Positions 2,920 through 36,321 of a DNA stretch of 36,321 nt are shown here, in pieces; the stretch's first letter is position 1, and the number at the start of each line of letters is the position of its first letter. The notes below the pieces were generated by a model, which saw only the letters and a program-made list of their open reading frames with translations, did not search any database and was not told where the DNA came from. Source of the DNA: a virus (lineage: Duplodnaviria; Caudoviricetes); IMG/VR virus record IMGVR_UViG_3300006169_000028, positions 1 to 36,321 of that record; one strand, 5' to 3'. Position numbers and translations under genes: made by a program.

Positions 2920-2946
2920 ATTTCGGTTCGGTTATTTAGTATTTCT

Positions 2947-3468
2947 TTATAATATCATTAAAACTTTTACGCTTGATTCGCCGGTTTTTGAGTATTCAAA
3001 GTCGAACGATCCGACGAGCCATTTATCTTGCTTGAAAAGTGCGTCGGCGAACGTACCGAAGACGTTTTCCGGATCTCCGTTATTCTTCTTCGCCCACGAA
3101 ATAAAGATATGCATTTCGGCCTTCGTGTAGTCCTGAACGATAACCGGTGCTTTTGACTCGTACCGGGCCGCCTCGAACTCGTTTTTGCATACCCGGACAC
3201 GTTCGAAGCCGTTTAAATCATTGCGAAACTCGATCGCTTCATAGAACGCCTTTTGAATCTTCTTTTTGAACTCGACGTACTTTTGCGCTTCGGGCGTCCA
3301 GTGCATACGGCCCGTCTTTTTGATCTTCCCGATCGGGTTTATTCGTTCGTCGTGATAGAGACGCTTTGCTTTGCGGTCGAAGCCTACGGATCCTCTGACG
3401 TCGAACTCGATAAATAAGCGGTTATTGTCTTTATGCTTTCGGAGATATTCTTCGGTTACGGCGAGCAT
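2947..3468 (-). CDS. RusA-like Holliday junction resolvase
   Basis: C-terminal GDPENVFGTFADALFKQD resembles RusA DxDNxxKxxxDAL...DD; typical position at the end of the early region; conserved Lys apparently absent. Confidence 0.65.
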   Translation of the reverse strand: MLAVTEEYLRKHKDNNRLFIEFDVRGSVGFDRKAKRLYHDERINPIGKIKKTGRMHWTPEAQKYVEFKKKIQKAFYEAIEFRNDLNGFERVRVCKNEFEAARYESKAPVIVQDYTKAEMHIFISWAKKNNGDPENVFGTFADALFKQDKWLVGSFDFEYSKTGESSVKVLMIL

Positions 3469-4180: not shown

Positions 4181-4705
4181 TTAGATAACCGGATTTAGAA
4201 CGAGTAAATACTTATCGAATCGCATTTTTTGACGGTTGAACGCTTCGATCACGTCGTCCGGAGCGATAATCAAAAGAAGCGTTCCGCCGTCTTTATATTT
4301 GATTTCCTCGACTCGAGCCGTGAACTCGATCGTCTCACATTCCTTTTGAAGCTCGTCGAGTTGCGCGCGCATTTCGGCCACCTTTTTATTTGTTTCCCGA
4401 ACTTGACCGGGATCGCTCGCGAATAGCGAATCATTAAGCTGATTTTCGACTTCTTCGATCCGTTCGATATAAGGCGCGGTATCTAGCTCGAAACGCATTT
4501 TGTAACGGTGATATGCGCGCGGAAGAATATCTTTTACGTTTAGTTTGATAAACCACGAAAGATCTTTAAGTTTGATCTCGCGTAAATCTAGCTTTGACTT
4601 GATCGACAAGACTTCTTCGTCGTCCATATCGAGCAGTTCGGCCGAGTCGTCGACAATGTGATCTTTGACGGCCTCGGATAATGTTTTCTTCGGTTCGGTT
4701 GCCAT
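4181..4705 (-). CDS. Hypothetical protein with central coiled coil
   Basis: 174-aa ORF tightly packed in the operon. Confidence 0.8.
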   Translation of the reverse strand: MATEPKKTLSEAVKDHIVDDSAELLDMDDEEVLSIKSKLDLREIKLKDLSWFIKLNVKDILPRAYHRYKMRFELDTAPYIERIEEVENQLNDSLFASDPGQVRETNKKVAEMRAQLDELQKECETIEFTARVEEIKYKDGGTLLLIIAPDDVIEAFNRQKMRFDKYLLVLNPVI

Positions 4706-4986: not shown

Positions 4987-5778
4987 CTATCTTCGGTTAT
5001 TAGCGAACTCTTTCGGTTTTTCCGGCGTGAACTTGATCCCGAGAATATCGGCTAGAGATTTGACGCCGTACATAGTTTCCCTTTGGTCGATCGGACGTTC
5101 TTCTTCGATCGGGCGATTCGGCCGGTATTGAAAGGCATAATGTTCGAGATCCTTCCAAAAGTCGGCGCGATTCTTCATATCATTCATAAGACCGTTTATC
5201 ACGGTAGAAGATAGGAAGACGCGAATCGAGGGCGAGAGCGTTTTATAACGTGGCGCGGCGAGGAAATAAATCATTAGTTGCTCGAATACGTTTTGCGATA
5301 CGTTGAGCTTATTTAATGCTTTCCCGAGCATTGATTTATCGGCGGCGGTGATCTGAACCGGTACGCCACGGAGACGTTTTCCGTTCTCGATAAAATATTC
5401 GATTAACTCGTTGAACATATTCGCATTCGGACTCGCTTTTTTCTTCGGATTTTTCGGCGGCTTGATTTCTTCCGGAACCTTCAAAAGCGTGTAAACGTGC
5501 GGCCGGCCCGGACGCTCCTCGATCGTAAGCAATCCGAGATCTTCGAGTTCTCGCTTAGCTTTGAAAGCGGTCGTTCGGCCGAGCGGTAGTTTTTCCGACA
5601 ACGCGGCGAGCGAGGGCCGGGCCTTTTGCGTGTGATTATTTGCGTACGTTGAGATCGCCATATATAGGCGAAACGCCGCATTCGAAACGTGCTTCGAAAA
5701 GATCACGCTCTTTTCTGTCCACGCCCATTTTTCCTCGCGGAGATCTCGGATCTCGATTTCTTGATTGTATTCACTCAT
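4987..5778 (-). CDS. Putative replication initiator with N-terminal winged HTH
   Basis: SNAAFRLYMAISTYAN...ARPSLAALSEKLPLGRTTAFKAKRELEDLGLL...HVYTL is typical of phage replisome-organiser N-termini, followed by a Lys/Pro linker and a helical domain. Confidence 0.75.
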   Translation of the reverse strand: MSEYNQEIEIRDLREEKWAWTEKSVIFSKHVSNAAFRLYMAISTYANNHTQKARPSLAALSEKLPLGRTTAFKAKRELEDLGLLTIEERPGRPHVYTLLKVPEEIKPPKNPKKKASPNANMFNELIEYFIENGKRLRGVPVQITAADKSMLGKALNKLNVSQNVFEQLMIYFLAAPRYKTLSPSIRVFLSSTVINGLMNDMKNRADFWKDLEHYAFQYRPNRPIEEERPIDQRETMYGVKSLADILGIKFTPEKPKEFANNRR

Positions 5779-7282: not shown

Positions 7283-9226
7283 TTATTTGTTTATGTTAAA
7301 GAACCCTTGTAATCGTTTAAGTTCTCGATCGCGCGGATCCATATACAGACAATCGCCGCGCCCCCGTAGTTTTTCCGCCCCGGCCTGATCGAGAATGACC
7401 CGGGAATCCGTGGTCGAGGCGGTTGCGAACGCAATCCGGGCCGGAAGGTTCGCTTTGATTAAGCCAGTAACAACGTCAACGCTCGGGCGTTGTGTAGCGA
7501 TAATCGCGTGAATACCGACCGCCCGGGCTTTCTGAACAATCCGCACAATAAGCGACTCGAACGATCCGACTTCGAGATCCATTCCGTAGTCGGTAAGCAT
7601 AAGATCGGCGAACTCGTCGATCACAAGAACGATCCGGTGAAGCGGTTTATTCTCGATATTGTATTCGTCGATATTGCGCGCTCCCACTTTTTCGAGTTTG
7701 TTATACCGCGCTTCCATTTCTAGCGTTAGCCAGTGAACCGCCTTCGTTGCCGGAAGTGTCTCGTATATCGGTTTTTCCAGTAAGAAGGCGCTGTCGCGGT
7801 ACTGTGAAAGCTCGACGCGCTTCGGATCGATCATTACGAATCGGAGCGATTCGGGCGTATTTTGCGAGATAAGAGACTCGATTGCGGTTGATAAAAAGAC
7901 CGATTTACCTTGACCGGTCGCCCCGGCGACGAGTAAGTGCGGCATATCCGCGAGCGATCGAACGACGGTTTTACCGTATACGTCCCGACCGATCGGAATA
8001 TTAAGCGACTCGGAAACGTAAAAGTCCTTTCGATCCGCGAAGATCGGTTTCGATTCTTCCTTTGTCGGAACCTCGAATCCGACCGTAGATGTACCCGGGA
8101 TCGGCGCTAGAACGCGAATAGAGTCGCTTTCGAGGGCGTAGGCTATATCGTTAGCGTGCTTCTCGAAATCGCTCATTTTGCGGCCTCGTGAGGGCTTCGC
8201 GGTGTATAGCGTGATATTTGGCCCCCGGTGTGTATCGCGCATTTCAACGGCTAGTCCGAACTCTTGAAGTTTGAGACGGATCTTTTCTTCGGCGGTTATA
8301 TGCTCGTTTTGCATTTGATCGACCGGAGATTGAACGAAGCGCTTTTCGGCGAACTGAACGTCGCGCGTCTTCTTTTCGGAAAGAATCACGTCGTCGGTTC
8401 CGAGTAGGTTTTGCGAGTAGATTATGAAGGAATCTTTCGCGCTCATTCGATCCGATAGGTTCGGAAGGTAGATTCGATCACGTCGGGCCATTTCGTAGGT
8501 ACAGTGATTATATAGATTCGCAAAGAAGGTAAAGTACGACGGATTATCGCCGAATACGATCTCGATCGGTCGCCATTGCGGAGAGCCGTCCCGGTTCTCG
8601 CTTGTCTTGATCTCGTCGAAGACGATCGAATGCGGTTCTTCGTTTAAGTGATTCTTGACGGCGTGATAGTAGAACATTCCTTGCAAGATCTGATTCGGCT
8701 CGTCGAGATCGTCGTCGGAAAACGAGGAAACGAACTTCGTATCTCGAATGACAATCCGTCCGTCTTCGTCTCGAATAACAAGATCCGGATACGCTTTAAT
8801 CGGGATCGCCGCCTTTGCAATCGAGCCGTCCGGATTCGGAAGTTCGATTTCGGTTAAGATCTTTTCTTCGGAAAGCTCGACGTGATCGAATCGCGGAACT
8901 TCTTCGAAGTAGAAGTTTAGTCCGGCGGTTAAAGTCTTCAATGCTTTTTCAAGCGACCCCGTTTTACCGAAGTCGATCGCGCCTTGCATATTTGTTAAAT
9001 GCTGAACGCCGACTTCAATCGCCCCCGGAATATCGTCTTGCGAATATTCGTAGAAGTGCGCGAGTGCTTTGTGTCCGGCTTGCCCGACGGCCCCGGCGAC
9101 GCTGAACGTATCTTCGTAAACCCCCTCGACGTATCTTTTCTTCCACCGGATCGGATCGGAGAGGAACGTCCGCATAGACGAATAGCTCCAATGATCGATA
9201 GGATAGGTTATATCTTGTTTAGTCAT
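7283..9226 (-). CDS. PD-(D/E)XK nuclease fused to an FtsK/SpoIIIE DNA translocase motor
   Basis: N-terminus HWSYSSM...GQAGHKAL...PDLV...DTK; C-terminus PHLLVAGATGQGKS, MIDPKRVEL, VIDEFADL, ATQRPS, GAEKLRGRGD. ATG 9226 preferred over GTG 9232. Confidence 0.92.
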   Translation of the reverse strand: MTKQDITYPIDHWSYSSMRTFLSDPIRWKKRYVEGVYEDTFSVAGAVGQAGHKALAHFYEYSQDDIPGAIEVGVQHLTNMQGAIDFGKTGSLEKALKTLTAGLNFYFEEVPRFDHVELSEEKILTEIELPNPDGSIAKAAIPIKAYPDLVIRDEDGRIVIRDTKFVSSFSDDDLDEPNQILQGMFYYHAVKNHLNEEPHSIVFDEIKTSENRDGSPQWRPIEIVFGDNPSYFTFFANLYNHCTYEMARRDRIYLPNLSDRMSAKDSFIIYSQNLLGTDDVILSEKKTRDVQFAEKRFVQSPVDQMQNEHITAEEKIRLKLQEFGLAVEMRDTHRGPNITLYTAKPSRGRKMSDFEKHANDIAYALESDSIRVLAPIPGTSTVGFEVPTKEESKPIFADRKDFYVSESLNIPIGRDVYGKTVVRSLADMPHLLVAGATGQGKSVFLSTAIESLISQNTPESLRFVMIDPKRVELSQYRDSAFLLEKPIYETLPATKAVHWLTLEMEARYNKLEKVGARNIDEYNIENKPLHRIVLVIDEFADLMLTDYGMDLEVGSFESLIVRIVQKARAVGIHAIIATQRPSVDVVTGLIKANLPARIAFATASTTDSRVILDQAGAEKLRGRGDCLYMDPRDRELKRLQGFFNINK

Positions 9227-9307: not shown

Positions 9308-10468
9308 CTAAAGCGTTACACCGTGATCGTTGAATAACTTTTGAATCGCCGCAACGATTTCGTTTGAAGTCTGCTCCCCGATTCCCGGAAGATCACTATA
9401 AATCCCGATCGCCGCGCCTTCGTTGTGCTTCATAGCCTCGCCAACGGTTGCGAGTCCGTATTCTCGCATAACTTTACACGCGCCCGGTTTGATACCCGGA
9501 ACGAGATCGATACTCATTTTTTTGATCTTCTCGATCATTTCTTCCTCGGAAGGATCCCGGAGAGCGTCGGAGAGCGATCCGTGTCCGTCGGCTTCTTCTT
9601 CACCTTCAAAAAGTGAGTCCGACTCCGGTTCAACGTTTGTCGCTTCGTCGTGAATGATCGTATCCGGCGTTACACCTCGAAGCTCGTTTTTCTTTTTTCC
9701 TAGTACGGCTTGAGATTGATCGTTTGAAATCTCGCCGGATTTAACTTCATATTCGACCGTTTCAAGATCGCCGCCGACAACGAGGCCGGAAAGTGCTTCG
9801 GGAACGATAAAGGCGGCAATATCGCCGATTGCTTTATAGCGAAGCATTCGTTCGGGCCATTTCTTCCACGCGCTCCGTTCGGTTATAAGACCTTTTTCCC
9901 GAGCCTGATCGATCGTAAACTTGCCCGTCATAGACGCGCCATTATCGCGGCGAGTAATCTTCACTTCGGCGGCCTTCTTGTCGTTCTGAATCCATTCAAT
10001 ATCGGCGTAACGAAGTATTCGTTGAATAACGATCGATCCATAAAGCGAGAGTTTACCGTTTACGAAATAGAACGAGTTCAACGATTGAATCGGAGTCAAC
10101 CCCATTTCATACCCGGCTTGAAGGGCCATAACCACCTTCGGCGTGTTATCCATAGTTGCCGGAAGTGCGTTCGATTTAGAGAAAGTTTCGGCGGCGATAT
10201 TGATCGCTTGCCACAGCTTCGGATTTAAGAAGTTAAGCGACCGAGCTTCGGCGTTTTGAATGTATTGATCGCTAGGCGCGGCCAGTTCTTGACCGAGTGC
10301 GGTTTTAGTTTGAGTCGCTTTTGCGACGGCGCTTGTAACAGTTGATTCGATCGTCCGAATAACTTCCGGCGATACTGTTCCGGCCGGATCTTCGGTTTTA
10401 GTTTGATCGGCTCCGGTGTCCGGATTGTCGACCTTCTTGTCTTCGGTTGTGTTGATGTTTTCGCTCAT
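9308..10468 (-). CDS. RecT/Red-beta-like single-strand annealing protein with C-terminal helix-hairpin-helix domain
   Basis: ALQAGYEMGLTPIQSLNSFYFVNGK...AWKKWPERMLRYKA...PEALSG matches the RecT-family pattern; C-terminal VPGIKP and LPGIGEQTS HhH motifs. Confidence 0.82.
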   Translation of the reverse strand: MSENINTTEDKKVDNPDTGADQTKTEDPAGTVSPEVIRTIESTVTSAVAKATQTKTALGQELAAPSDQYIQNAEARSLNFLNPKLWQAINIAAETFSKSNALPATMDNTPKVVMALQAGYEMGLTPIQSLNSFYFVNGKLSLYGSIVIQRILRYADIEWIQNDKKAAEVKITRRDNGASMTGKFTIDQAREKGLITERSAWKKWPERMLRYKAIGDIAAFIVPEALSGLVVGGDLETVEYEVKSGEISNDQSQAVLGKKKNELRGVTPDTIIHDEATNVEPESDSLFEGEEEADGHGSLSDALRDPSEEEMIEKIKKMSIDLVPGIKPGACKVMREYGLATVGEAMKHNEGAAIGIYSDLPGIGEQTSNEIVAAIQKLFNDHGVTL

Positions 10469-10493
10469 AGTCCACGTAATAGGTTAATGATTT

Positions 10494-10733
10494 TTAAAGT
10501 GCGTACGTCCCGGCTTCGAATCGTTGCCGCAATCGTAGGGCGTTAGCGCCCTTTATGAAAATCCGGGTTCCCTTGCCTTCACCGCTTATATTTGCGGCGA
10601 GTAAGTTCTCGGATTCCCGATCGCGATCGACGATCGAACGGTACGTTGTGTATGAACTCGCCCACGGCCACGCATTAAGTTCGAGTAGCGCGCGGAGCGA
10701 GTACATAGTGTTCGGTTCGATTTGCTTTTTCAT
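10494..10733 (-). CDS. Small putative DNA-binding protein (Xis/MerR-like architecture)
   Basis: 79 aa from ATG 10733; MYSLRALLE helix, SYTTYRSIV helix and GEGKGTRIFI hairpin; has its own promoter. Confidence 0.55.
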   Translation of the reverse strand: MKKQIEPNTMYSLRALLELNAWPWASSYTTYRSIVDRDRESENLLAANISGEGKGTRIFIKGANALRLRQRFEAGTYAL

Positions 10734-12894: not shown

Positions 12895-12944
12895 TTTCGG
12901 TTCGGTTATTTTTAATCGATAGCTTCGCTTTGCTATCTATCTTT

Positions 12945-12973
12945 ATATTAGTATGTTTTATTATGTTTTGCAA
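12945..12973 (-). promoter_or_regulatory. Main early promoter with operator copy 4
   Basis: TTGCAA-17 bp-TAATAT; ATGTTTT-att-ATGTTTT-gca-ATGTTAG overlaps the spacer and -35. Confidence 0.75.
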
Positions 12974-12981
12974 TGTTAGAA

Positions 12982-12990
12982 TGTGGATAA
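12982..12990 (-). promoter_or_regulatory. Perfect DnaA box
   Basis: TTATCCACA, 8 bp upstream of the -35 of the early promoter. Confidence 0.55.
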
Positions 12991-13014
12991 CGAAAATACG
13001 GCCATAAATAACAC

Positions 13015-13138
13015 AAAAGCCGCCTTCGTGAACAGAAGCCGGCGCGCGTGTGGATACTATGAGCGAAGCAAAGTAACCGAACCGAAGAAGGGCGCGCCGG
13101 ATCCTGCTCGCGAGAGCGGCTAGGATCGCGTATACGGC
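13015..13138 (-). ncRNA. Candidate cloverleaf antisense RNA in the 3' UTR of the lysis operon
   Basis: Four-way junction GCCGT/GCGGC, GATCCT/AGGATC, CCGGCGCGC/GCGCGCCGG with a 44-nt loop, CTTC/GAAG with a 7-nt loop, then TTTT; loop complementary to many gene starts. Confidence 0.65.
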
Positions 13139-13141
13139 GTT

Positions 13142-13522
13142 TTATTGAACGAGTGTACTATCGGGACTATTCGAGGGCGAAACGGCCGCTACGGGCGCAA
13201 TAACGACGTCCGCCGGGTTCTTTACGCGGTTATAGAAGTCGTGGATAAAGTTCGATCCGCGTCCGACGAGTGATCCGGTAATAATCGGGCCTACTAGCGG
13301 AATCGCGGTCGTAAGTCCGAGGATCGCGAGAAGATCGGCGTCGTAGGCGATCGCGAGAGCGATTCCGACGAGCATTGATACATATTTAACGCTTTCCATT
13401 GTCGAACCGTCCGGGCGCTTGAAAAATGGCGCTACGTAATACTCGACAAGAGCTTCCGCGACGGTTGCAAGAAGTAGGATTCCTCCGAACGTTGCGACTA
13501 GGCTTGAAAGTGTCGTTTCCAT
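13142..13522 (-). CDS. Putative holin
   Basis: Three hydrophobic segments and GSLVGRGSNFIHD; follows the endolysin. Confidence 0.75.
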   Translation of the reverse strand: METTLSSLVATFGGILLLATVAEALVEYYVAPFFKRPDGSTMESVKYVSMLVGIALAIAYDADLLAILGLTTAIPLVGPIITGSLVGRGSNFIHDFYNRVKNPADVVIAPVAAVSPSNSPDSTLVQ

Positions 13523-14960: not shown

Positions 14961-14992
14961 AAGATACGGTTCGGTTATCTTTTAATGTTTTT

Positions 14993-15067: not shown

Positions 15068-15160
15068 GTTCAATATCTGAACTACCCCCGTTCAATATCT
15101 GAACTACCCCCGTTCGGATTCTGAACGGGTAAGCCACCCGTTCAATATCTGAATGGGTAG
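15068..15160. repeat. Iteron-like repeat array, putative replication origin
   Basis: GTTCAATATCTGAACTACCCCC twice in tandem (22 bp), then GTTCGGATTCTGAAC at 15112 and GTTCAATATCTGAAT at 15140; palindromic cores; AT-rich flank at 15026-15064. Confidence 0.75.
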
Positions 15161-15181
15161 ACAAGTTTACAAGTTTACGCG

Positions 15182-21358: not shown

Positions 21359-21679
21359 TTTTTTTTTCGGATTTGTAACGCCTTCGATTTCCTTTACTAC
21401 CACGTCGTAATCCCGGGAATCGAGATCGAGAACCGCATTTACAAGATCGGAAGTCTTATCGTCGACGCGAACGACCAGCGTTTCGATCGCCTTGTCGAGC
21501 GATTTTGTCGTAAGCGCTCCGGATAGTCCGGTGATTTCCTGTTCTTCGCCCTTCATTGAGACGTTCATTTCGTCCAAGTAGACGGATTGAATAGCGCGCT
21601 TTTCGCGACCAGTCATTGACGTTTTAAGCTCGACTTCCTGATTTGACACGGGAAGCGTGAAAGTTTTTGTTTCGCTCAT
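21341..21679 (-). CDS. Tail assembly chaperone (gpG-like)
   Basis: Between the tail tube and tape measure genes; slippery run near the 3' end. Confidence 0.85.
   Translation of the reverse strand: MSETKTFTLPVSNQEVELKTSMTGREKRAIQSVYLDEMNVSMKGEEQEITGLSGALTTKSLDKAIETLVVRVDDKTSDLVNAVLDLDSRDYDVVVKEIEGVTNPKKKEEETN
21359..21368 (-). promoter_or_regulatory. Programmed -1 ribosomal frameshift site
   Basis: CCG AAA AAA AAA GAG contains the X XXY YYZ heptamer A AAA AAA. Confidence 0.8.
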
Positions 21680-21699
21680 AGTTTTATTCGGTTAAGTTA

Positions 21700-30317: not shown

Positions 30318-30353
30318 ATGATAAATATTCGGTTACTTGTTAATAACGTTTTT

Positions 30354-34468: not shown

Positions 34469-35738
34469 CTTCTTCGGTTACGTCTTTAACTGATTTCGTT
34501 ACGACAATGTCTTCGTCGTCGTCGGTTCGCTCCGGAAGTCCTAGATTCTCGCGGAAGAACTGTTCGTCGGCCTCGATCACGCCAACCGCCCCGGTATCCG
34601 TTAGCGTCTTGTATGCGTCGGCGAGTCCCTTTACGTCGACCGTCGTAATGCCGGTATAGTCAAGCTGTGGATAAGCGGTTACGTTGTCGTAGTTCATATC
34701 GACAATCTGCTTTATGACGTACTTATTGAATGCGTCGACAAAGTTATTCGCAACCGCCTCGACCGATTGAAGGAATAGATCGGATTGATCGGCCGAAAGC
34801 GCATACGAGCCGGTTTCGTTAGCGCCAAGTTCTAGGAACTGCGCGAGGGCCGCTTTTAGAATCTCGCGGTTATGATTTGCGATCGCTTTTTCCGGAGACG
34901 CAATCGACCCGGATTTCATATCCATAAACTTGAAGTCCACCTTGCCGTTCCCGACTATGTACGCTTGTTCGTCCGCGTAAAGATTTTCAAGAACCTGTTC
35001 GGCCTTGCGCTTTGATTCGTCGTCCCATTCCGTACCTTCCCTCGGATCGGCCATAGGAATACCGAGGCCGTGGCGTTCGTATGCGAGCGCCTCGATCTTG
35101 TAGAAGTTATTTTTGAAAAACCAATGCTTATATGGCGCGCGAAGAATCGAAGTTCCCCACCAGTTATCTCCCTCCTTTTCATTTACGATAATCAAAAGTT
35201 TTTCGATCGGGATTGAAACCGTACGGGCGTCCGTACTATTTGCGAGTTGCTGAACGATTCCGTCTTCACCGTCGATCGTTTGCCACCGTTCGATCGTCGT
35301 CGGAAGGCGCGGCGCCAGTTTACGAAGAACGACCATATCCCGGCCGTTGACCGTTCGAATATCGAACACCTTCTCGAACACGGATACGCCAAAATCAAGA
35401 CAAAGAAGCGCCTGTCGTATCACGTCGTCCCACGTCATAGACATTTCTTCAAAAAGGTTTTGCGAGATACGATCGGCGATTTCAATATCGCGCTCCTCTT
35501 GCGAGGCCGGCTTTATGTACCAGTTAGCACGGCGGATCGGTAGTTTTAAAACGCGAAGAAGTGCGGAGATCGTACCGTCTGACTTCCGCATTTCGTCATA
35601 GATCGTCATTGCCCGAACGCCGTCTAGCTCGGGATTATAATCGTGCGAGATAATACCTTTCCAGTTACTCGTCCCGGTTTGACCGTACTCCGGCCCGCGT
35701 ACTTTTACGTTTGAGTCTTGAGAGTCGACGTTCGCCAT
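34452..35738 (-). CDS. Portal protein (Mu gp29 / DUF935-like)
   Basis: YDEMRKSDGTI, GVSVFEKV, WGTSILRAPY, ERHGLGIP, GSYALS; directly after terL. Confidence 0.9.
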   Translation of the reverse strand: MANVDSQDSNVKVRGPEYGQTGTSNWKGIISHDYNPELDGVRAMTIYDEMRKSDGTISALLRVLKLPIRRANWYIKPASQEERDIEIADRISQNLFEEMSMTWDDVIRQALLCLDFGVSVFEKVFDIRTVNGRDMVVLRKLAPRLPTTIERWQTIDGEDGIVQQLANSTDARTVSIPIEKLLIIVNEKEGDNWWGTSILRAPYKHWFFKNNFYKIEALAYERHGLGIPMADPREGTEWDDESKRKAEQVLENLYADEQAYIVGNGKVDFKFMDMKSGSIASPEKAIANHNREILKAALAQFLELGANETGSYALSADQSDLFLQSVEAVANNFVDAFNKYVIKQIVDMNYDNVTAYPQLDYTGITTVDVKGLADAYKTLTDTGAVGVIEADEQFFRENLGLPERTDDDEDIVVTKSVKDVTEEDVDDL

Positions 35739-35763: not shown

Positions 35764-36321
35764 TTAAAACTTCTTCCTACGTAATCCACTATTCACGCGC
35801 TCGACCTTTTGTTCAACGTTAGCGTTCGGGATCGATAGATCCGGCTCGATAAGTTGGAAGCGTTGAAGCGCACACATAGTCGCGTCCGGAATGTGGTCGT
35901 CTTTCTTGATCGTCATATCCGAGCCTTCGCGATACCGGAGCCGCTTATGTTGCCATATGGCCGTTTTTTGCGACGCCGGGATTTTGAACCGCTCGTTTTC
36001 GAACCAAGCGCGATAGTTTCCGATCATTCGCGGCTTTTCCTTCGAAAAGACGACTTCGTGAACAACCGGGGATAACCTCGCTTCCCGGATCCGAGGATCA
36101 CTCGCGAACGTTTTCCGAAGAAGATCGTTTTCGAACTTTCCGGCGCTGTCACAATACCAGTGTTGAACACGTCGGGCGATTGTGTATTTAACAATCGCTT
36201 CGATAATAATATCAAGCGAAACTTGCGAATACGTGGCGACGTGATCGGAAACCGCATTTTGACCGTGCCGCAAAAGTCCGGTAACGGCCGTCATAGAAGA
36301 AAATCCCCAGTCTATACCGCC
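35764..36321 (-). CDS. terL: Terminase large subunit, 3' (nuclease) part
   Basis: GGIDWGFS, YCDSAG, KKDDHIPDA; continuation of 1..1074 across the join. Confidence 0.93.
   Translation of the reverse strand, partial: GGIDWGFSSMTAVTGLLRHGQNAVSDHVATYSQVSLDIIIEAIVKYTIARRVQHWYCDSAGKFENDLLRKTFASDPRIREARLSPVVHEVVFSKEKPRMIGNYRAWFENERFKIPASQKTAIWQHKRLRYREGSDMTIKKDDHIPDATMCALQRFQLIEPDLSIPNANVEQKVERVNSGLRRKKF
36235..36321. repeat. Terminal direct repeat, copy 2
   Basis: Identical to 1-87. Confidence 0.97.

Follow-up and report, generated by a model that had tools for sequence, protein, structure and literature searches.

The window (the whole stretch of DNA analysed, 36,321 nt) is a whole 36.3-kb phage genome with direct terminal repeats. 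All 48 of the 48 called genes are on the minus strand. The late genes include those for the terminase, Mu-like head proteins, tail, endolysin, and a holin-like protein; a rod-shaped RNA element comes next (Table 1), and the early genes downstream of it include RecT, a nuclease-FtsK fusion, a replication initiator, and a RusA-like resolvase. The terminase large subunit gene spans the join of the record (1-1074 and 35764-36321, minus strand), and the record ends carry an 87-nt terminal repeat. Shine-Dalgarno (SD)-like motifs were found at only 3 of the 48 starts. Because the starts are SD-less, a host of the Patescibacteria type might be guessed.

Proteins shared with related phages are about 40-55% identical to those of this phage, and the nearest relative found is not close. 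The annotated phage collection gave only 14 matches, all short and unrelated. Single-protein scans with the holin-like and nuclease-FtsK proteins found no relatives. Genome scans identified tail-tube relatives in three alphaproteobacterial records and one gammaproteobacterial record, and no relative of the early module. Profile searches gave no named family match for the holin-like protein; its positional equivalent in the relative G019 matches a PHROG holin. The nuclease-FtsK gene (7283-9226, minus strand) encodes a fusion of a PD-(D/E)XK nuclease with an FtsK motor; it adjoins RecT and is kept across the clade. A 79-aa gene (10494-10733, minus strand) was present in all 11 rod-bearing records then compared and in 7 others. 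Its Xis/MerR-like winged-helix leads are weak and below the score bar, and it is a candidate transcription regulator. The endolysin promoter region is preceded by a repeat cluster (15068-15161) that consists of two exact 22-nt tandem copies, a degenerate third, and overlapping inverted repeats.

The candidate early promoter region after the rod contains motifs that we take to be a DnaA box and promoter hexamers, and they occur in the same order in several relatives. In this arrangement, a DnaA-box-like TTATCCAC or TTATCCCC lies 17-37 nt before a TTGACA or TTGCAA hexamer, ahead of the early genes. It was seen in the window (12982-12990, minus strand) and in G009, G010, G013, G014, G017, G021, and G024, with the rod present or not. 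It is possible that host DnaA controls an early promoter or origin. The gene strand also carries six TGnTAnAAT motifs, most of them just ahead of genes, including the lysin gene and the gene after the major capsid gene (the post-capsid gene). Many late starts have a TATAAT-like hexamer immediately upstream.

Table 1. Features of the rod locus and start regions matched by its loop (window positions)
Feature	Position	Strand	Description
Holin-like gene	13142-13522	-	126 aa; three hydrophobic segments (hydropathy scan); placed after endolysin
Rod RNA element	13018-13121	-	MFE and ensemble folds; 30-nt inverted repeat, 80% complementary
Rod arms	13121-13092 (5' arm), 13047-13018 (3' arm)	-	flank the 44-nt loop
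Apical loop with antisense seeds	13048-13091	-	44 nt; mean unpaired probability 0.56
Seed A	13071-13089	-	complements the TAACCGAA(CCGAA/GAAG) start tag
Seed B	13056-13067	-	contains CAU; covers -3 to +9 of the RecT and tail chaperone starts
U-rich tract after rod	13004-13017	-	from sequence; terminator-like site
Candidate early promoter region after rod	12945-12990	-	DnaA-box-like TTATCCACA, then TTGCAA and a -10-like hexamer
TGnTAnAAT (extended -10)	12974-12982	+	sole plus-strand copy in the genome; points into the rod
Target: RecT start	10460-10471	-	12 nt, -3 to +9; most conserved target in relatives
Target: tail assembly chaperone start	21671-21694	-	12 nt over AUG and 8 nt upstream
Target: endolysin leader	14967-14977	-	11 nt, -17 to -7
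Target: post-capsid gene leader	30328-30338	-	11 nt
Target: first early gene leader	12896-12908	-	13 nt; 16 of 17 extended
Second site in the leader hairpin of the first early gene	12922-12929	-	8 nt
Target: 174-aa early gene, codons 2-7	4686-4700	-	15 nt
Target: 166-aa early gene leader	2922-2934	-	13 nt
Target: head morphogenesis gene leader	34469-34481	-	11+9 nt
Target: RusA-like resolvase, codons 4-7	3448-3459	-	9-10 nt
Target: 86-aa early gene leader	4990-4999	-	8-9 nt

Fold of the rod element and matches of its loop

The stop of the holin-like gene lies 21 nt ahead of the rod. The two 30-nt arms form 24 Watson-Crick and 3 G.U pairs with 3 mismatches, and the rod was seen throughout 2000 sampled structures. 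The preliminary description had proposed a four-way junction, or cloverleaf, for this region. That fold was not upheld: the ensemble is a rod, and forcing the proposed closing stem costs 5.4 kcal/mol. The 9-bp GC stem (13039-13047/13092-13100), the 44-nt loop, and the minus-strand U-tract of that description are all present, and the stem and loop are common to both folds. A cloverleaf-like state may form briefly during RNA synthesis. The U-rich tract is likely to be the late-operon terminator, judging from its sequence. ARAGORN gave no tRNA call for the element, and Rfam gave no match at E<=1 in the window and none at the gathering score in the loci of four relatives. A cloverleaf, a tRNA mimic, and a DNA-targeting guide were rejected on the basis of the fold, the strand bias, and the position of the matches at starts.

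All of the loop matches listed in the preliminary description were confirmed by direct sequence check; the head morphogenesis leader and weaker matches at 1643-1650 and 10711-10719 had been missed. The expected enrichment at start regions was also borne out against shuffled controls. Of the 47 start regions (-30 to +21), 8 have a match of 11 nt or more to the loop, compared with 0.49 expected, and none of 2000 dinucleotide shuffles reached the observed start count at any k from 8 to 11. The best other 44-nt segment matched one start at k=11. Nine of the ten exact matches of at least 10 nt on the mRNA strand fall at starts (0.7 expected). After opening costs, pairing energies of -8 kcal/mol or lower were obtained for 9 of the 47 starts versus 0 of 123 background sites; the strongest site, in the 174-aa early gene (4686-4700), has a net energy of -16.4 kcal/mol. 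The matches are on the mRNA strand, between -21 and +20 of the AUG. The tail assembly chaperone was named by its position between the tail tube and the tape measure, and the post-capsid gene has a weak DUF7210 match under the cut-off.

The tag TAACCGAA has 13 copies on the mRNA (minus) strand of this genome, 8 of them at starts. Its only plus-strand copy in the genome lies inside the rod loop, in seed A. A loop-pattern search beyond this phage gave no matches. The exact tag appears to be private to this phage, because the 19 matches of a tag-plus-ATG pattern search were single and unrelated; among 119 loci, two have it at a start, in one copy apiece.

Rods and seeds in related phages

The relatives comprise 44 related records or large parts thereof. 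Their genes were called by a simple script, which reproduced the manual gene list, and some starts may be misplaced. Rods at the late/early junction were found in 11 related records (G013, G040, G014, G015, G017, G019, G021, G024, G038, G044, and G052). These rods have 22-30 bp and a 35-70-nt top, and usually lie 5-30 nt after the holin-like stop, ahead of a terminator. G009, G010, G012, G034, G045, G051, G054, and others lack a visible junction rod. Seven rods could be aligned, with 59% column identity. Double-sided changes were found at 14 of the 22 basal pairs in the seven aligned relatives, which exceeds all 500 shuffles of a control that ignores kinship.

In most relatives a terminator hairpin with a U-tract stands directly after the rod as a separate structure, and G045 has a terminator without a rod. 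Together with the conserved targets of the relatives, which are distant genes, these arrangements argue against a reading in which the element is mainly a terminator, read-through transcripts pair their loop locally, in cis, with the leader of the first early gene, and the other matches are by-products. The U-tract directly after the rod in this phage would suit such a role, as would the adjacent leader (12896-12929), which lies 157 nt downstream of the loop and complements 16 of 17 nt. We consider this reading very improbable.

A covariance model (R1) was built from the seven aligned rods, without the element of this phage. The element was the top R1 match in the window, and a weak one (15.1 bits on the minus strand, 16.8 on the plus strand, E 0.03-0.08). 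Its sequence kinship to the rod family is thus weak, and its place there rests on position, shape, and shared targets. Five R1 matches in 67 kb included the held-out G052 (24 bits, gene strand), G014 (16), and G019 (11). Across 100 sources R1 found the training set and G040 only, and across 43 further records it gave no match; these misses are not proof of absence, because G052 was missed there yet reached E=0.001 with filters off.

The head-tail adaptor protein is common to these phages (39-67% identity). Tyrosine integrase, HTH_3 repressor, and serine recombinase matches were found in 0 of 10 rod-bearing records; integrase matches were found in 4 of the 6 other records searched. A rod-like hairpin also follows a late gene in G026 (L191:5298-5372), an integrase-bearing provirus; it has neither start matches nor an R1 match, and G026 has no RecT label. 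Long rods with large tops were seen in the early regions of G009 (L140 near 3230 and 5000-5360), G012 (L145 near 7740 and 10250), and G051. They show no clear match to the conserved targets, and the junction rod is absent from these phages. G010 (L141, L142) carries the tag AGAGCAA at 7-8 starts, including those of Rep, the gene before RecT, and the lysin; it has no junction rod, and the sole antisense copy of its tag is in a hairpin inside an ORF near L141:16090.

The loops of the relatives differ in sequence, yet they match the RecT, chaperone, lysin, and post-capsid starts of their own genomes. Covariation of loop and target, named earlier as a check on the antisense proposal, was thus found. 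The G019 loop contains a 22-nt perfect complement over the RecT AUG (-9 to +13), and also matches the tail chaperone (12 nt), the lysin (11 nt), and the post-capsid gene (10 nt). These are the same four genes as in this phage, matched with different sequences. In G021 one loop seed matches five orthologous conserved targets over 7-8 nt each, four of them from position -8; in G014 a 6-9-nt seed matches four target starts. G038 has two seeds, one of which pairs 18 of 19 nt on RecT codons 1-7. In 19.8 kb of G052, the complement of its loop is present 8 times; 6 of these copies fall at starts, among them RecT, the gene before RecT, and the chaperone. G052 came to light afterwards and was given a separate test (p 0.045 and 0.014). 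Matches in G013, G015, G024, and G044 are weak (5-9 nt). The RecT match overlaps the apical loop in 10 of 10 predicted folds, weak matches counted.

Cognate and swapped loops were compared in a matrix of ten phages, with this phage as G000. G026 was excluded, as was G040, a near copy of G013. The RecT matches in relatives had been noticed by eye before the matrix test. The RecT cognate sum was 97 versus 64 swapped (p=5e-6; 0.001 without G000 and G019), and significance was also reached for the chaperone (p 0.0006; 0.027 without the same two), the lysin (0.0008; 0.045), and the gene before RecT (0.0008), although such permutation p-values overstate independence because the relatives share ancestry. 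For the four targets named beforehand from this phage, in uniform 80-nt windows, p was 1e-5 without G000 and 2e-4 without G000 and G019. In within-genome nulls (random and intergenic segments), the observed sum was reached in 0 of 100000 draws. Fifteen pooled control genes gave p=0.48 and 0.63, and a same-sense control gave p=0.56. When 17 non-target genes were taken singly, cement reached p=0.036 and the Xis-like gene 0.05, and the other 15 were not significant. The capsid, portal, tube, tape measure, hub, neck, and adaptor starts gave no cognate signal. Blind scanning of the 11 rod records placed the rod below the top three windows in 6 of them. When 28 related records were scanned blindly for anti-start segments, a method that misses short seeds, no more than 4 starts were matched at k=11, versus 8 in this phage.

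The minus strand had been proposed from a G.U pair said to work on that strand only. This pair does not serve as strand proof, and structure does not discriminate between the strands: their folds are nearly equal in this phage (z -3.7 for plus, -4.5 for minus), and a symmetric wobble count in ten rods is neutral (25 G.U versus 33 A.C positions). The gene (minus) strand is favoured by context, because late transcription enters the rod and the terminator comes after it. The gene strand folds better in 7 of 9 rods, and R1 scores it higher in 3 of 3 held-out relatives. The strand matters for an explanation in which the tags are protein-binding sites or a translation enhancer, and the rod is a plus-strand decoy with sense copies, or a DNA hairpin. 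Such a decoy would fit the near-equal fold of the plus strand, the sole plus-strand extended -10 motif 36 nt before the rod, and G010, which keeps its tag without a rod. However, the tags are wholly different among phages, one phage has two unrelated seeds, and a 22-nt perfect match into codons is more than a protein needs. No protein family was found that is present in all rod records and missing from the others. Given also the strand preference of the rods, we regard a decoy or protein site as quite unlikely.

Proposed function

The element is real and conserved, and is probably functional. On comparative sequence grounds, we think it fairly probable that the rod is the 3'-end RNA of the late operon and that, in late infection, it prevents translation from starting on genes that are mostly non-virion. 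The rod would be transcribed together with the holin gene and end at the U-tract. The RNA might persist as a stable 3' piece, or it might act within the late mRNA. Its open loop would nucleate first on the A/C-rich leaders of this nearly SD-less phage, and the pairing of loop and start would block ribosome loading late in infection.

Repression is suggested because the pairing covers the AUG or the first codons in seven phages (this phage, G019, G038, G017, G024, G044, and G052). This coverage, up to 24 bp in G019, speaks against an RNA that pairs with the starts and activates them, either by replacing the SD contact or by opening the leaders of highly expressed genes. Activation would agree with the scarcity of SD-like motifs, with seeds that end at or beside the AUG in G021 and G014, and with GGAG in the second loop of G021; but GGA is absent from the loop of this phage, and of the explanations weighed here activation seems to us the least probable.

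The conserved targets are RecT, the gene before RecT, the tail chaperone, the lysin, and the post-capsid gene. RecT, the chaperone, and the lysin are non-virion proteins. With most targets non-virion, and with the capsid, portal, tube, tape measure, and neck genes left untouched, the expected effect would be less recombination and less lysin, and more ribosomes available to make particle proteins. Covariation in relatives now supports the multi-target antisense regulator that had been placed at the 3' end of the lysis operon. Early-gene shut-off, its proposed role, is too narrow a term: the first early gene and other early genes are matched, but three of the four conserved targets sit in the late operon. 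Late feedback that damps recombination and lysis during particle building would be the simplest reading, and we hold it to be reasonably probable.

The same antisense RNA could instead be made constitutively and take over the task of a protein repressor, either maintaining a carrier state or conferring immunity to superinfection. It would then keep the first early gene, RecT, and leaky toxic genes silent, both in the resident genome and in incoming ones. This explanation is kept under consideration because the integrase, HTH_3, and recombinase models match none of the ten rod records. The conserved tail chaperone target suits late tuning better, even though the first early gene is a top target in this phage and the lysin and post-capsid genes bear extended -10 motifs of their own. 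Seeds differ among phages, as immunity types would, and a plasmid state might be supported by the ParB-like and FtsK genes; a lysogen, plasmid, or carrier state was not found. The RNA has no evident promoter of its own, and the rods begin 5-30 nt after a late-gene stop. Overall, immunity is judged unlikely.

In a broader scheme, an SD-less, repressor-less lineage would run its developmental switch with one RNA scaffold and a fast-changing guide loop. This scheme is speculative, and we would call it doubtful. If it were true, the starts of recombination, chaperone, and lysis genes would carry a private tag with its mirror image in the rod, and a lysis/assembly timer and phage-specific immunity would be combined in one molecule. 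It would also give start-associated tags a concrete RNA partner, and SD-less hosts a natural programmable silencer.

Comparison with known systems

Among known systems, the C4 antisense RNA of phages P1/P7 and the P4 CI RNA come nearest to the element. The likeness to C4 and CI proposed in the preliminary description holds for function only; the element has no cloverleaf and no Rfam C4 match. According to passages in PMC5320573, C4 is a three-stem-loop RNA of ~77 nt that is cut by RNase P and serves lysogenic immunity, and one of its seeds partly occludes a ribosome site. Like C4 as portrayed there, the rod would be a phage RNA that targets phage mRNAs in trans, using loop seeds that are short and variable (PMC5320573). 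Its predicted loop seeds are likewise complementary to phage translation starts. Unlike C4, it is a long rod at the late-operon end, with 4-10 targets among early and late genes.

In GcvB and S. aureus RNAIII, one RNA blocks many starts, with G/U-rich seeds on C/A-rich leaders. The rod would resemble these in multi-target start blocking. It differs in being phage-encoded with targets among the phage's own genes, and in seeds that co-vary with their targets instead of being conserved in sequence.

The tags resemble the start-associated sequences (SAS) described for mycobacteriophages of Cluster K and Microbacterium phages of Cluster EF, which in passages of PMC3203893 and PMC7302621 are private motifs of one orientation, mainly at the starts of non-structural genes. 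There, SAS include an SD core and are located 3-7 bp ahead of the start (PMC3203893, PMC7302621), and the 2011 paper, in the same passages, left the partner open as RNA or protein (PMC3203893). The tags described here lack an SD core (no AGGAG), float between -21 and +20, and enter codons. They also have an antisense loop that changes with them.

Other phage antisense RNAs, namely sar (P22), OOP and aQ (lambda), and PAK_P4as15, also pair with phage mRNA and control development, as summarized in sections of a 2025 review (PMC12197685). PAK_P4as15 is proposed there as an endolysin repressor that delays lysis (PMC12197685). These RNAs have one target each, mostly on the opposite strand, in the account of those sections (PMC12197685), whereas many distant targets are matched here. 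A multi-target phage case of this sort was not found in the same sections (PMC12197685). Literature searches, mostly of titles and abstract openings, found no description of a RecT-centred rod family. The rod family was also not found in passages and 3 of 6 supplements of PMC10690425, whose other supplements may list these RNAs.

The rod shares the features of trans-acting antisense small RNAs: a separate locus, exposed seeds predicted to complement several ribosome-loading regions, and conserved structure with apparent seed-target covariation. The rods might be placed among the known antisense kinds as a new RNA family, probably functional, that would define a phage-internal regulon in which seeds and targets change together. 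Described phage antisense RNAs are mostly single-target, and start-associated motifs have been without a partner since 2011. A motif, a mirror-image loop, and an orthologous target set that change together provide comparative evidence for an RNA-run phage regulon. Such a regulon would show how translation is timed without SD sites, and its compact scaffold might be useful for antisense tools.
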